From Escherichia coli (GTDB lineage: Bacteria > Pseudomonadota > Gammaproteobacteria > Enterobacterales > Enterobacteriaceae): a DNA stretch of 64,000 nucleotides. The notes beneath the pieces are model-generated. The model did not search any database. It was given only the letters and a program-made list of their open reading frames with translations, and was not told the DNA's origin. The stretch lies in assembly GCF_003334815.1 (NCBI RefSeq), contig NZ_QOWO01000001.1, one strand, 5' to 3'. Shown piece after piece: positions 872 to 42,690 of this stretch. Position 1 is the first letter of the stretch, and each line of letters starts with the position of its first letter. A program made the translations under genes and the position numbers.

Positions 872-3271
872 TTGCCTGGAGCGACAAGGATGTTAAAAAA
901 AACGTTACTGGCCTACACCATTGGTTTTGCCTTTTCTCCCCCAGCCAATGCAGATGGTATAGAGATTGCCGCTGTTGATTTTGATCGGGAAACATTAAAA
1001 TCACTAGGTGTAGATCCTAATATATCGCATTATTTTTCCCGTTCAGCCCGTTTTTTGCCAGGTGAATATTCACTGATAGTATCAGTAAATGGCGAAAAAA
1101 AAGGCAACATTGCTACGCGCTTTGATGAAAATGGCGACATTTGTCTTGATCAGGCATTTCTGCAACAAGCCGGTTTAAAAATTCCTTCTGAAGAAAAAAA
1201 TGGCTGTTACGACTATATATTGTCCTACCCGGGTACCACAATCACACCATTACCTAACCAGGAAGCGTTAGATATTATCGTTTCACCACAGGCGATCATT
1301 CCCATAGGGTTGGATCTCACAAACGCAGCAACTGGTGGAACAGCTGCGCTGCTAAACTACTCTCTGATGAGCAGCCGTGCAGAATTTTCTAATGGGAGTT
1401 CGGACTACTCCCAGGCTGCACTTGAAGGTGGGATTAATATTAATGACTGGATGTTACGCAGCCATCAGTTCCTTACACAAACAAATGGCACATTCAGTAA
1501 CCAGAACTCGTCAACCTACCTTCAACGTACCTTTACAGATCTTAAAACACTCATGCGAGCAGGTGAAGTTAACCTCAATAATAGCGTGTTGGAAGGAGCC
1601 AGTATTTACGGTATCGAAATCGCACCGGACAACGCATTGCAAACCAGCGGCAGTGGTGTGCAAGTTACTGGTATAGCCAACACCTCTCAGGCTCGTGTCG
1701 AGATTCGTCAACAAGGAGTTTTAATTCATTCCATTCTGGTTCCTGCGGGCGCATTCACTATCCCTGATGTACCTGTTCGCAATGGTAATAGTGATCTTAA
1801 TGTCACCGTTGTCGAAACAGACGGTAGTTCGCACAACTATATTGTTCCCTCCACCCTGTTTAATCAGCATGTAGAAAGCTTCCAGGGTTATCGCTTCGCG
1901 ATAGGGCGGGTAGACGATGACTATGACGAATCACCTTGGGTAATTAGTGCATCGAGCGGATGGAATCTGACACGCTGGAGTGCAATGAACGGCGGCGTTA
2001 TCGTAGCAGAAAATTATCAGGCGGCATCAATCCGGTCGAGTCTGGTTCCCCTGCCCGATTTAACAGTGAGCAGCCAAATTAGTACATCGCAGGATACGAA
2101 AGACTCACTGCAAGGACAGAAATATCGTCTTGACGCGAACTACAATCTCCCATTTTCACTTGGGCTAACAACCAGCCTCACTCGATCTGATCGCCATTAT
2201 CGCGAACTGTCTGAAGCGATTGATGATGATTATACCGATCCGACTAAAAGCACTTATGCGCTTGGTTTAAACTGGTCTAACTCCATTCTGGGTGGTTTCA
2301 ACATCAGTGGCTATAAAACATATAGTTACGACGGTGACAATGACTCAAGCAACCTTAATATTAACTGGAACAAAGCGTTCAAACACGCCACGGTTTCCGT
2401 CAACTGGCAGCATCAACTTAGTGCTTCAGAAAATAATGAAGACGATGGTGATCTGTTCTACGTCAACATCAGTATTCCATTTGGCAGATCAAACACCGCC
2501 ACACTGTATACTCGCCATGACGATCATAAAACCCACTATGGTACTGGTGTCATGGGAGTCGTCTCAGATGAGATGTCCTACTATGTGAATGCTGAACGAG
2601 ATCACGACGAACGTGAAACGAGCTTGAACGGCAGTATCAGTTCCAATCTCCATTACACCCAAGTCAGCCTTGCCGCAGGAGCAAGCGGCAGTGATAGCCG
2701 TACTTACAACGGTACGATGTCAGGTGGTATTGCCGTACATGATCAGGGAGTGACCTTTTCACCGTGGACTATCAATGACACTTTCGCCATCGCAAAAATG
2801 GATAACAATATTGCAGGTGTCAGAATTACATCTCAGGCAGGCCCAGTATGGACAGATTTTCGGGGTAATGCCGTCATTCCATCAATCCAGCCGTGGCGAA
2901 CATCAGGAGTTGAGATCGATACCGCCAGCTTGCCAAAAAATGTCGATATCGGTAACGGCACAAAAATGATCAAACAAGGCCGTGGTGCAGTAGGGAAAGT
3001 CGGATTCAGTGCGATAACACAACGCCGTGCATTACTCAATATCACACTTTCCGACGGCAAAAAACTGCCCAGAGGCGTTGCGATTGAAGATAGTGAAGGC
3101 AACTATCTGACAACATCAGTGGATGACGGTGTTGTATTCCTCAATAACATCAAACCGGACATGGTGCTAGATATAAAAGATGAGCAGCAATCATGCCGTA
3201 TTCACCTTACATTCCCAGAAGATGCACCAAAAGATGTGTTCTATGAGACAGCAACAGGAGAGTGCCAATGA
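872..3271 (+). CDS. yhcD: Outer-membrane fimbrial usher protein
   Basis: ORF track 799 aa; recognised as YhcD usher; canonical start may be the internal Met (MLKKTLLAY) a few codons downstream. Confidence 0.9.
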   Translation: MPGATRMLKKTLLAYTIGFAFSPPANADGIEIAAVDFDRETLKSLGVDPNISHYFSRSARFLPGEYSLIVSVNGEKKGNIATRFDENGDICLDQAFLQQAGLKIPSEEKNGCYDYILSYPGTTITPLPNQEALDIIVSPQAIIPIGLDLTNAATGGTAALLNYSLMSSRAEFSNGSSDYSQAALEGGININDWMLRSHQFLTQTNGTFSNQNSSTYLQRTFTDLKTLMRAGEVNLNNSVLEGASIYGIEIAPDNALQTSGSGVQVTGIANTSQARVEIRQQGVLIHSILVPAGAFTIPDVPVRNGNSDLNVTVVETDGSSHNYIVPSTLFNQHVESFQGYRFAIGRVDDDYDESPWVISASSGWNLTRWSAMNGGVIVAENYQAASIRSSLVPLPDLTVSSQISTSQDTKDSLQGQKYRLDANYNLPFSLGLTTSLTRSDRHYRELSEAIDDDYTDPTKSTYALGLNWSNSILGGFNISGYKTYSYDGDNDSSNLNINWNKAFKHATVSVNWQHQLSASENNEDDGDLFYVNISIPFGRSNTATLYTRHDDHKTHYGTGVMGVVSDEMSYYVNAERDHDERETSLNGSISSNLHYTQVSLAAGASGSDSRTYNGTMSGGIAVHDQGVTFSPWTINDTFAIAKMDNNIAGVRITSQAGPVWTDFRGNAVIPSIQPWRTSGVEIDTASLPKNVDIGNGTKMIKQGRGAVGKVGFSAITQRRALLNITLSDGKKLPRGVAIEDSEGNYLTTSVDDGVVFLNNIKPDMVLDIKDEQQSCRIHLTFPEDAPKDVFYETATGECQ

Positions 3272-3813
3272 AACGGATAATAACAGGATGCCTGCTGCTG
3301 AACTTCGCCATGGCCGCTCAGGCAGAGTGTAATATCTCCAGTAGCATACAAAATATCGACTATGGCAAACGAAGTGCTGCCATGCGCCAAGTTGACCGGG
3401 GTAAAACAACACAATTAGCAGACAGAACAATCACGCTGGTAATGCAATGCGATCAGGACGCTCATATTCGTGTTCAGTTGAATACCGCTAATATTTCCAA
3501 CAACGGATTTGGATTTGGCCCGAATGGTTCATTAAATCTGATCGCCAGCGATGCATTTTCAGGTAGTAACAATCTCGACCTGGCGTTAGCCAGTGGCAAA
3601 AATGACAATCCGGGCAGCACAGGAACAGCATCAATTAGTACTTCCCCCAATAATTGGCTGGTGTTTATGCAAAATGGTCAAGAAGTGGTAATTGATAGCG
3701 GTAAAAGCGTTAGCCTCACACTGACAATGGCTCCAGCTTTTAAGGATGAAGGGGAACTAACCGACATGACAGATATTACAGGCAATCTGACGGTCCTGGT
3801 GGAGGCAAAATGA
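3262..3813 (+). CDS. yhcE: Fimbrial-like protein, apparently intact
   Basis: ORF track 183 aa with signal-peptide-like N-terminus; position after the usher; no IS interruption visible. Confidence 0.7.
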   Translation: MPMKRIITGCLLLNFAMAAQAECNISSSIQNIDYGKRSAAMRQVDRGKTTQLADRTITLVMQCDQDAHIRVQLNTANISNNGFGFGPNGSLNLIASDAFSGSNNLDLALASGKNDNPGSTGTASISTSPNNWLVFMQNGQEVVIDSGKSVSLTLTMAPAFKDEGELTDMTDITGNLTVLVEAK

Positions 3814-5897: not shown

Positions 5898-7230
<1,333 letters not shown>

Positions 7231-40267: not shown

Positions 40268-41242
40268 ATGCAGGCGTTACTTTTAGAACAGCAGGACGGC
40301 AAAACTCTCGCATCAGTACAGACTCTGGACGAAAGTCGCCTGCCGGAGGGCGATGTCACGGTCGATGTTCACTGGTCGAGCCTGAACTATAAAGATGCGC
40401 TGGCGATTACCGGTAAGGGAAAAATCATCCGTAATTTTCCGATGATTCCTGGGATCGATTTTGCCGGAACTGTACGCACCAGCGAAGATCCGCGTTTTCA
40501 TGCCGGTCAGGAGGTGTTACTCACTGGCTGGGGCGTTGGTGAAAACCACTGGGGTGGGCTGGCGGAGCAGGCGCGAGTGAAAGGTGACTGGCTGGTTGCC
40601 ATGCCGCAAGGGCTGGACGCGCGTAAAGCAATGATTATCGGTACTGCCGGTTTTACCGCCATGCTGTGTGTGATGGCGCTGGAAGATGCCGGTGTTCGCC
40701 CGCAGGACGGGGAGATTGTCGTGACGGGTGCCAGTGGTGGCGTCGGCAGTACCGCCGTGGCGCTGCTGCATAAGTTGGGTTATCAGGTCGTTGCCGTTTC
40801 CGGTCGCGAAAGTACCCATGAATATCTGAAAAGTTTAGGTGCTAGCCGTGTTCTCCCTCGTGATGAGTTTGCCGAATCCCGTCCTCTGGAAAAACAAGTC
40901 TGGGCTGGGGCAATTGACACCGTTGGCGACAAAGTGCTGGCAAAAGTGCTGGCGCAAATGAATTACGGCGGCTGCGTGGCGGCCTGTGGTCTGGCGGGTG
41001 GTTTTACTCTGCCAACCACGGTCATGCCATTTATTCTGCGTAATGTCCGTTTGCAAGGGGTGGATTCAGTAATGACGCCACCAGAACGCCGCGCACAAGC
41101 CTGGCAGCGACTGGTCGCCGATTTACCGGAATCATTCTATACCCAGGCGGCAAAAGAGATATCTCTGTCAGAGGCACCGAACTTTGCCGAGGCCATCATT
41201 AATAACCAGATCCAGGGTCGCACGCTGGTGAAGGTTAACTAA
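40268..41242 (+). CDS. acuI: NADPH-dependent acrylyl-CoA reductase (MDR superfamily)
   Basis: ORF track 324 aa; recognised YhdH. Confidence 0.93.
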   Translation: MQALLLEQQDGKTLASVQTLDESRLPEGDVTVDVHWSSLNYKDALAITGKGKIIRNFPMIPGIDFAGTVRTSEDPRFHAGQEVLLTGWGVGENHWGGLAEQARVKGDWLVAMPQGLDARKAMIIGTAGFTAMLCVMALEDAGVRPQDGEIVVTGASGGVGSTAVALLHKLGYQVVAVSGRESTHEYLKSLGASRVLPRDEFAESRPLEKQVWAGAIDTVGDKVLAKVLAQMNYGGCVAACGLAGGFTLPTTVMPFILRNVRLQGVDSVMTPPERRAQAWQRLVADLPESFYTQAAKEISLSEAPNFAEAIINNQIQGRTLVKVN

Positions 41243-42219
41243 CCATTTAGCAGGGAATAATAAGAGAGGGAACTCATTTTGAAATCATTATTCAATCGGT
41301 TAACGGGAAAAGCGGTTAGCCGGACAGCTTTCGTCGAACACCTTGGTCAGGAAGTTATACAACATCATCCAAACTGGAAAGTCATGATTTCGACTGACCA
41401 CAAATTGATGCGCATTGATACTCCACTAAACAGCTATTATTGATACGCCTCCGTCGCCTGTTAGGTTTATGGTGCTTTGCCTGGGCGACGCTACGCTTAG
41501 CCCCTTACTTATTTCTGGTACCATGGGGTGAATAATCTGATTTTGTTTGACTACAAATTAATCACTCGAACCTATTTAATGCTGAGCATTGTCAATCGGT
41601 TAATTTTGCGTGCTTTAGCATTCACATCTATCCAGACGATGCAGTGAAAATTGGGTAATCCCCAGCAACCGCTGCGTAATGTCGTCTATCTTGTCGCGAT
41701 CCTGGCATCCCTACATTATTTGTGGTCTGTGAAGATTATCTCATTGCAGCCCCTCATCTTCGCAGGGCTGGCTTTTCAGCTTTTCACCTTACGTTATAAG
41801 AAGTTCCGTCGATGATGGCGCTAATTTCGTGAATTGTGCGGCTTGTTGCAAATTACACGGTGTTGAAGGTTATTTACATGTTAGCTGTTGATTATCTTCC
41901 CTGATAAGACCAGTATTTAGCTGCCAATTGCTACGAAATCGTTATAATGTGCGACCTCGTCCTCCCTGACGCAGTTTTTGCGCTGCGGAAAAGGTGACAT
42001 TGGCGCAACGAAGGTATATTTTGTTTTTTGCCGGAGGATAGCAGCAGATCGCTGCACAATGTCCGTCAAGTCTAACATTGACACTCTGGGGCAAAATAGA
42101 CCGGCGTCCCGGCCTGCTGGAATTTATCGCTATGCATACAGCTGTCGGGGCATACGCTTTACAGACGGCGGTGAAACGCCTGTCACAATCACACTAAACA
42201 AAGAGTACGGAACCCACTC

Positions 42220-42690
42220 ATGGATATTCGTAAGATTAAAAAACTGATCGAGCTGGTTGAAGAATCAGGCATCTCCGAACTGGAAATTTCTGAAGGCGAA
42301 GAGTCAGTACGCATTAGCCGTGCAGCTCCTGCCGCAAGTTTCCCTGTGATGCAACAAGCTTACGCTGCACCAATGATGCAGCAGCCAGCTCAATCTAACG
42401 CAGCCGCTCCGGCGACCGTTCCTTCCATGGAAGCGCCAGCAGCAGCGGAAATCAGTGGTCACATCGTACGTTCCCCGATGGTTGGTACTTTCTACCGCAC
42501 CCCAAGCCCGGACGCAAAAGCGTTCATCGAAGTGGGTCAGAAAGTCAACGTGGGCGATACCCTGTGCATCGTTGAAGCCATGAAAATGATGAACCAGATC
42601 GAAGCGGACAAATCCGGTACCGTGAAAGCAATTCTGGTCGAAAGTGGACAACCGGTAGAATTTGACGAGCCGCTGGTCGTCATCGAGTAA
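42220..42690 (+). CDS. accB: Biotin carboxyl carrier protein of acetyl-CoA carboxylase
   Basis: ORF track 156 aa; biotinylation motif EAMKMMN. Confidence 0.97.

Follow-up and report, generated by a model that had tools for sequence, protein, structure and literature searches.

The acuI-accB interval of Escherichia coli as a probable gene-decay scar followed by the accBC control region

The interval between acuI and accB in Escherichia coli is most probably a gene-decay scar followed by a working accBC control region, a reading to which we assign a probability of about 0.88. It consists of pieces of three dead genes together with a normal accBC promoter and leader. For that reason the 54-codon ORF at its upstream end is best regarded as the stump of a gene, and the finding as a whole is ordinary and largely annotated already; what is new, and modest, is a relic of aroQ in the accBC leader and a conserved stretch of ~70 nt immediately before accB. 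The analysis covered a 64,000-nucleotide stretch of one E. coli contig (the window), in which the gene order is csrD, acuI (yhdH), the gap, accB, accC, yhdT, and panF. The gap spans 977 bp (41243-42219) and is bounded by two intact neighbours on the plus strand. Upstream, acuI (40268-41242) is a 324-aa ORF so annotated in every E. coli record inspected; downstream, accB (42220-42690), with accC next, is a 156-aa ORF likewise so annotated in all records inspected.

A preliminary description had characterized this stretch as a gene-free region of about 1 kb. Its length holds, and no intact gene was found in 41243-42219, where the longest ORF is at most 89 aa. Recognisable gene remnants do lie inside, however, so that "gene-free" is true only if it is taken to mean "no intact gene." The interval was matched in all 5,426 of the complete E. 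coli genomes searched, with at least 80% of its length covered in 5,421 of them. It is therefore a fixed feature of the species and not a quirk of one strain.

The TTG-initiated ORF of 54 codons at 41279-41443 (plus strand) that the preliminary description had put forward as a possible small gene is present exactly as reported, including its quoted translation and the GAGAGGG motif upstream. This Shine-Dalgarno-like motif, read directly from the sequence at 41264-41270 (plus strand), lies 8 nt ahead of the TTG at 41279, and a start codon with a ribosome-binding site, as expected of a small-protein gene, is thus in place. The motif would nevertheless be the native ribosome-binding site of another gene, encoding a longer DUF1444-like protein, of which the ORF appears to be the truncated 5' stump. 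Strain Tig207 (L004) carries a 276-aa gene with the identical TTG start, named by PGAP a DUF1444 domain-containing protein, and in L004-L008 the 36-nt segment upstream of the intact gene's TTG is the same but for one or two substitutions. In blastn comparisons, positions 41200-41421 of the window matched Tig207 positions 2458-2679 with 97.7% identity and diverged beyond, while window positions 41523-42260 were 99.7% identical to the same strain. Between the two matching blocks, 101 bp of the window stand against 856 bp in Tig207, comprising the rest of the gene and a 168-bp flank. As the start is common to both and the blastn identity extends until 41421, the ORF is made up of codons 1 to 48 of the 276-aa gene (41279-41421), followed by six codons and a stop that belong to a fragment of msrQ read out of frame. 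The 54-aa product corresponds to the N-terminal sixth of the 276-aa protein and had no match among the family profiles of Pfam and NCBIfam. Judged from these comparisons, the ORF is probably a pseudogene stump with no expected function, and any translation of it would be a by-product of the retained ribosome-binding site and of read-through from acuI.

Two arrangements of this region occur in E. coli: arrangement A, the truncated majority form found in the window, and arrangement B, the form with the intact 276-aa gene. The junction between stump and msrQ that characterizes A was detected in 4,749 of the 5,426 complete genomes, and the 856-bp segment unique to B in 670 (~12%). Arrangement B is also found in E. 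albertii, where the protein has 93% amino-acid identity; a genome scan for wider relatives of the DUF1444-like gene returned E. albertii only. Between the two species, the dN/dS of the intact gene is 0.10 to 0.13, and it is thus under purifying selection. The 276-aa protein could be aligned to model positions 15 to 254 of 264 of the DUF1444 family, but its match was weak in both profiles (Pfam PF07285, E=0.0094, 16 bits; NCBIfam PRK13668, E=7.5e-5, 22 bits versus a cut-off of 221), and the stump matched neither. In B, the 168-bp flank is joined to msrQ codon ~101, a junction shared with E. albertii, whereas A keeps ~100 bp of msrQ (codons ~67 to 100) that are missing from B. One deletion alone therefore cannot turn B into A: either an ancestral form that carried both parts survived, or A is the product of illegitimate recombination with a donor richer in msrQ sequence. 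An intermediate that combines the intact gene with the longer piece of msrQ was ruled out among the complete genomes, as none of them has both junctions. In 7 of 8 residues, the N-terminus of the DUF1444-like protein (KSLFNRLT) is like the C-terminal end of the functional E. coli MsrQ (RSLFNRLR), a similarity that may be due to chance.

Immediately downstream of the stump, a profile match and alignment identified a pseudogene of msrQ (yedZ) at 41424-41815 (plus strand). It is homologous to codons ~67 to 196 of MsrQ/YedZ, the haem-binding membrane subunit of the MsrPQ methionine-sulfoxide reductase. When the conceptual translation of 41424-41815, joined across one frameshift, was searched against family profiles, it matched NCBIfam MsrQ (NF003831; Pfam PF01794) with E=9e-26 and 90.7 bits over positions 70 to 193 of 212; as no more than a fragment is left, the score does not reach the cut-off of 130 bits for the whole protein. 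At the nucleotide level, the fragment shares 77% identity over 382 bp with the functional E. coli msrQ; at the protein level, its identity to intact MsrQ from Citrobacter, Kluyvera, Klebsiella, and others is 60 to 74%. It does not contain a complete MsrQ frame of ~196 to 211 aa. The ~66 N-terminal codons, or N-terminal third, are absent, a +1 frameshift is located near 41521-41527, and an in-frame TGA at 41645-41647 precedes the original stop at 41813-41815; for these three reasons the fragment is a pseudogene and not a working MsrQ. Likewise, no similarity to the partner gene msrP was found in this region of the window. PGAP annotates a YedZ or cytochrome b pseudogene at this location in CFT073 and other strains, and IS1 insertions in the pseudogene segment are tolerated among natural isolates.

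The functional E. coli msrPQ genes are located elsewhere, between hiuH and zinT, and encode an MsrQ of 211 aa. In relatives, by comparison, msrP and msrQ occupy the acuI-accB site: a Citrobacter freundii-like contig has the order mreB, csrD, acuI, msrP, msrQ, accB, accC, and an msrP-msrQ pair is present at the same site in Klebsiella aerogenes, Pseudescherichia vulneris, and Kluyvera intermedia. As these relatives keep the pair there, the interval is the ancestral location of msrPQ. Two short metagenomic contigs encode an intact 196-aa MsrQ of which the last ~45 codons, together with the downstream DNA, are 92 to 100% identical to E. coli, while the remaining part of MsrQ on the same contigs is ~76 to 84% identical.

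Both pseudogenes have counterparts in the literature on K-12, where the genes on a cloned fragment were given in the order acuI, yrdF', yrdE, accB, with yrdF and yrdE described as pseudogenes (PMC7648144). The stump ORF and the msrQ fragment fill the same acuI-accB interval in the same order in the window, which is 99.9% identical to K-12-like records. From this gene order and the K-12 annotation, the 54-codon stump is presumably yrdF' and the msrQ fragment yrdE, the link between name and feature being one of order and not of coordinates. On that basis, both pseudogenes appear to have been recorded already under these names.

The part of the interval that would be functional begins near 41890. 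It is separated from the msrQ fragment by a spacer (41816-41889) whose alignment columns are variable and which is unconserved between genera. An alignment spanning the msrQ-to-accB interval in seven sequences from six genera (including Escherichia, Citrobacter, Klebsiella, Pseudescherichia, and Kluyvera), together with a promoter scan, delimited a 66-nt block at 41890-41955 (plus strand) that is invariant or nearly so in all seven. The region's best sigma-70 match lies in this block and is a putative promoter with a -35 element CTGCCA (41921-41926), a 16-nt spacer, and a -10 element TATAAT (41943-41948), which match the consensus at 10 of 12 positions; its hexamers, its spacing, and its conservation in relatives are all those of a sigma-70 promoter. 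The preliminary description had taken this same -10-like element as part of the accBC promoter and had expected a long leader behind it, and on both points the comparison between genera is supportive: the conserved TATAAT block fits the accBC promoter, and transcription would start near 41954, leaving a leader of ~266 nt.

The accBC promoter was reportedly mapped by Li and Cronan in 1993 to a few hundred bp upstream of accB, a position which we take to agree with a start near 41954. According to reviews, accB and accC are cotranscribed, and their transcription is growth-rate regulated and under autoregulation by AccB's N-terminal domain (PMC3896788; PMC11602165). The target of this autoregulation is not known (PMC11602165). 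The window resembles this known system in its accBC pair and long leader, with a transcription start that we infer here.

The leader itself appears to have been assembled largely from the remains of a third gene. In Klebsiella, Pseudescherichia, and Kluyvera, msrQ is followed by ~240 bp, aroQ (150 aa), 22 bp, and accB, and aroQ starts ~105 nt after the promoter. Positions 41827-42079 of the window align with the spacer between msrQ and aroQ and on through 21 nt at the start of aroQ (L014-L016, L012), which places the former aroQ ATG at 42059. The first part of the leader (41954-42058, plus strand) would thus be the ancestral aroQ leader, its identity to the msrQ-aroQ spacer of L014-L016 being 78 to 83%. 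It is followed by an aroQ 5' relic at 42059-42079 (plus strand), recognised because the blastn match runs on into aroQ, which comprises the start codon and first 7 codons and reads MSVKSNI compared to MADKFRI or MTDKFRI in the intact genes. The other end of the gene is preserved as a 3' relic at 42150-42197 (plus strand), consisting of the last 15 codons and the TAA. Here, tblastn found 13 to 14 of 15 residues identical to AroQ 136-150 (E=3e-6 to 8e-6). Beyond it, the 22-nt spacer with the accB translation-initiation region (42198-42219, plus strand) aligns with, and would descend from, the aroQ-accB intercistronic region. Across the last 47 nt of aroQ, this spacer, and the start of accB, window positions 42151-42250 are 96 to 99% identical to L014-L016.

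The filler between the two aroQ ends (42080-42149) had no recognisable aroQ similarity, as local alignments scored no better than shuffled controls (p=0.18 to 0.52). The only segment within it that resembles aroQ is GCTATGCATAC (42128-42138), which is similar to aroQ nt 400-411. As the scores equalled those of shuffled sequence, a decayed aroQ interior was dropped as an interpretation of this filler. Hence, an intact frame for the type II 3-dehydroquinase AroQ (Pfam PF01220) is not present, and what is left of it is the first 7 and last 15 codons.

In its promoter block, leader, 22-nt spacer, and both aroQ ends, the window is similar to the aroQ-accB-accC cluster of other Enterobacteriaceae. 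It differs in that ~315 to 365 bp of aroQ are gone in E. coli, E. albertii, and the C. freundii-like contig, and because this part is missing, the promoter would now serve accBC alone through a long untranslated leader. The internal loss of aroQ has similar end points in E. albertii and the C. freundii-like contig, and in all three it could be one old deletion. For the dehydroquinase step, E. coli uses AroD, an enzyme of type I. An earlier description of the aroQ relic was found neither in a literature search nor in the annotation tables of the E. coli records inspected.

In 10 E. coli genomes of arrangement A, the distribution of variable sites differs strongly along the interval. The stump (41279-41443) has 11 variable sites in 165 nt and the following segment (41427-41662) has 33 in 236 nt, compared to 8 in 557 nt for 41663-42219 and 4 in 404 nt for 41816-42219. 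By this pattern, the promoter and leader are constrained and the body of the pseudogene is free to evolve. In these 10 genomes, the fall in diversity at ~41663 starts within the msrQ pseudogene.

Comparison between genera suggests where in the leader such constraint may act. In the three aroQ-bearing genera, synonymous differences amount to 0.08 to 0.17 in the last 16 aroQ codons versus 0.52 to 0.56 in codons 1 to 134, and the 22-nt spacer at 42198-42219 is identical in five of six genera, with a 1-nt deletion in L015. The low synonymous divergence and the near-identical spacer together point to nucleotide-level constraint on the ~70 nt upstream of accB, which are presumably nearly invariant because accB translation or regulation needs them. 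Within the aroQ 3' relic, a predicted hairpin at 42164-42184 is found in all six sequences. It varies at one loop position and by one G-C to G-U change only, and this limited variation leaves the hairpin without compensatory support. A further hairpin, at 41965-41994, is predicted in seven of seven taxa with differing stem sequences; for this leader hairpin, the RNAalifold consensus was weak at -7 kcal/mol, and the covariation term was slightly unfavourable. The U-rich block GAAGGTATATTTTGTTTTTT at 42010-42029 does not vary apart from a single substitution in L009 and another in L012.

Two conserved features of the leader might be cis-regulatory elements of acetyl-CoA carboxylase expression, a suggestion that we make tentatively and consider less likely than not. 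One may comprise the hairpin at 41965-41994 and the U-rich block at 42010-42029 and would correspond to the Yersinia RNA Ysr190 discussed below. The other may be the nearly invariant 70 nt before accB with the hairpin at 42164-42184, surviving inside former aroQ coding sequence. Such features could act as an attenuator, as a stabiliser, or as a target for the autoregulation of accBC by AccB. With regard to an intrinsic attenuator, the hairpin at 41965-41994 does not abut the U-rich block and has the weak consensus given above, and an attenuator here is at best a candidate.

Two short frames in the interval could in principle still encode proteins. That the 54-codon TTG ORF at 41279-41443 is a functional small protein, kept or newly recruited after the truncation, is in our judgement very unlikely, even though its native ribosome-binding motif and start codon are retained, its frame is open in all 10 of the truncated-arrangement genomes examined, and the junction that defines it is that of the E. 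coli majority. PGAP calls it a hypothetical protein in some strains and leaves it uncalled in others, and the exact protein has been deposited from more than 200 contigs. These observations are to be set against its origin as a sixth of a longer protein without a family match of its own, against its description as a pseudogene in K-12 (PMC7648144), and against the composition of its last six codons, which are out-of-frame msrQ sequence and vary in amino acid at three of six positions. The preliminary description had proposed conservation of the small ORF as a check, and this spoke against a small gene as well. Among the 10 genomes, 8 nonsynonymous versus 3 synonymous variable sites were counted, near the neutral expectation, although these sites are too few for a firm dN/dS; since the same 48 codons within the intact gene also show 4 nonsynonymous versus 3 synonymous sites, the test has low power, and at that power no purifying selection on the stump frame was detected. 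Outside E. coli, the 54-aa ORF as such is absent, and in E. albertii the same start opens a 271-aa ORF. Less likely still is that a second TTG ORF, at 41651-41815 (54 aa, hydrophobic) in the downstream part of msrQ, is still a small membrane protein and in this way explains the low diversity after 41663. Its frame is open over 54 codons with conserved MsrQ C-terminal sequence, only 4 variable sites occur in 41663-41815 among the 10 genomes, and the segment is 100% identical to a metagenomic contig with intact MsrQ. However, a 1-nt deletion at 41754 breaks the frame in 2 of the 10 genomes (L003 and L022), and the promoter scan gave no promoter-like site immediately upstream. Moreover, the low-diversity tract runs on through non-coding DNA up to accB, and as it does so, linkage to the constrained promoter and leader is the better explanation.

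The remaining alternative concerns RNA instead of protein, as the preliminary description had suggested that the remainder of the interval, besides its probable accBC promoter and leader, could encode an sRNA. Such an independent sRNA, for example an E. coli counterpart of Ysr190, would be transcribed from the promoter at 41943-41948 and end at the U-rich block at 42010-42029, and we regard it as improbable. In an Rfam search at permissive thresholds, Ysr190 (Yersinia sRNA 190; RF02764) gave a weak full-length match at 41923-42022 (25.3 bits, E=0.098 to 0.59); everything else was noise. In Yersinia ruckeri, Ysr190 is reported to be expressed as an RNA (PMC12112432), and the conserved hairpin with its differing stems in seven taxa and the near-invariant U-rich block would suit an RNA of this kind. 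The model is nearly the same as the promoter at its 5' end (GCUAAUUGCUACGA..UAUAAUG) and has its 3' end in the U-rich block. However, the score is far under the gathering threshold of 66, and the match begins upstream of the predicted transcription start, with the -35 to -10 region of the promoter as its best-aligned part. The similarity thus marks orthologous promoter and leader DNA and not membership in the family. In addition, a scan of the region found 0 terminator-like sites, the conserved hairpin and the U-rich block lie ~15 nt apart, and folding energies were no better than those of shuffled sequences (z=-0.09 for the 78-nt start of the leader and -1.32 for the whole leader). An independent sRNA gene was rejected on these grounds; at most, a short leader transcript of the accBC operon would be expected. 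What occupies the remainder of the interval is the msrQ pseudogene and an accB leader with aroQ remnants.

From the observed homologies, gene orders, and patterns of conservation, we infer the following order of events for the gene-decay scar and the control region behind it. The ancestral order would have been csrD-acuI-msrP-msrQ-[promoter]-aroQ-accB-accC, as seen in living relatives. Escherichia would then have lost msrP and, from msrQ, the 5' third, and here a DUF1444-like gene adjoins acuI. In the majority of E. coli, only the first 48 codons of this gene would have been left, joined to msrQ codon ~67. This fusion would have created the 54-codon TTG ORF (yrdF'), which leads into the dead msrQ fragment (yrdE'); neither the stump nor the fragment would be expected to do anything. 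The sigma-70 promoter downstream would at first have driven aroQ-accBC, until a later deletion removed ~315 to 365 bp of aroQ (roughly codons 8 to 30 through 130 to 135). It would now transcribe accBC by way of a ~266-nt leader composed of the old aroQ leader, the two aroQ ends, and the old aroQ-accB spacer.

Viewed as a possible new small gene or sRNA, the interval is of little import, being pseudogene debris and a known promoter. It does provide an example of inconsistent annotation, as the same sequence is a pseudogene, a hypothetical protein, or nothing at all, depending on the E. coli genome consulted. The history proposed here would also explain the long accBC leader of E. coli, which would be that of an aroQ-accBC operon with aroQ cut out. 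If the cis-regulatory reading of the two leader features is true, the aroQ deletion would have been tolerated only because both were spared, and the conserved 70-nt element would be a testable candidate site of accB translational control or of AccB autoregulation.

Both ends of a deleted aroQ gene, which encodes a type II 3-dehydroquinase, are still present within the accB leader of the E. coli window (approximately positions 41954 to 42219). The first 7 codons lie at 42059 to 42079 and the last 15 codons at 42150 to 42197. In Klebsiella aerogenes, P. vulneris, and Kluyvera (loci L014 to L016), an intact aroQ sits between the same promoter and accB. A search of annotations and papers found no description of this relic. 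Close to the leader's 5′ terminus, a hairpin at 41965 to 41994 is predicted in 7 taxa with differing stem sequences, and it is followed downstream by a near-invariant block, GAAGGTATATTTTGTTTTTT (42010 to 42029). As a weak match to the Rfam Yersinia RNA family Ysr190 spans this hairpin and GAAGGTATATTTTGTTTTTT region, Ysr190 may correspond to a piece of the aroQ-accBC operon leader.

Two short gut metagenome contigs (L012, 1 to 958; L013, 1 to 904) each encode an intact 196-amino-acid (aa) MsrQ, and L012 runs on into an intact aroQ start. Over the last ~45 codons of these msrQ genes and the downstream promoter region, identity to E. coli is 92 to 100%; over the first ~150 codons it is just 76 to 84%. 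These contigs could stem from recombination, from chimeric assembly, or from a close relative that has yet to be sampled. The functional MsrQ of E. coli, encoded at another locus, comprises 211 aa, compared with 199 aa elsewhere, due to a 12-residue C-terminal extension. The start of this extension, RSLFNRLR (within L011, 5580 to 5636), resembles the N terminus of the DUF1444-like gene product, KSLFNRLT (window 41279 to 41302), at 7 of 8 residues and 16 of 21 nucleotides. This likeness may be due to chance or may be a trace of msrPQ relocation.

The DUF1444-like gene, named for its weak similarity to DUF1444, is located between acuI and the msrQ remnant. Intact copies encode 271 to 276 aa (L004, strain Tig207, 2537 to 3367; L008, Escherichia albertii, 6001 to 6816). 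The intact gene occurs in E. albertii as well as in 670 of the 5,426 E. coli genomes, and it is under purifying selection (dN/dS of ~0.1). When 100,044 species genomes were scanned, no further close relative was detected beyond these two species. Comparison of window positions 41415 to 41530 with L004 (2680 to 3535) and L008 (6817 to 7150) indicates that a single deletion cannot convert either E. coli arrangement into the other. The truncated majority form has kept msrQ codons ~67 to 100, which are missing from the intact-gene form, and the junction of the latter is common to E. coli and E. albertii.

Within-species diversity falls sharply at ~41663: among 10 genomes, 33 of 236 sites were variable in 41427 to 41662, versus 8 of 557 in 41663 to 42219. 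The low-diversity tract includes sequence that is still pseudogene (41663 to 41815) and a segment without conservation between genera (41816 to 41889). Some clinical isolates carry IS1A inside the msrQ remnant (L024, ~476 to 1270; window ~41518), and others carry it between the DUF1444-like gene and the remnant (L023, 698 to 1395); therefore, the pseudogene part tolerates disruption. PGAP annotation of the acuI-accB interval is inconsistent for the same sequence between RefSeq genomes. In some strains the 54-codon stump of the DUF1444-like gene (41279 to 41443) is a "hypothetical protein" or the msrQ fragment a "YedZ," "MsrQ," or "cytochrome b family" pseudogene, and in some the interval is unannotated.

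The ~70 nucleotides immediately 5′ of accB (42150 to 42219) are 96 to 99% identical between genera. Over the final 16 codons of aroQ, synonymous divergence is 3- to 6-fold below that in the remainder of the gene, and variation in a predicted hairpin at 42164 to 42184 is confined to the loop and one G-C to G-U change. This element may act in the translation or regulation of accB.
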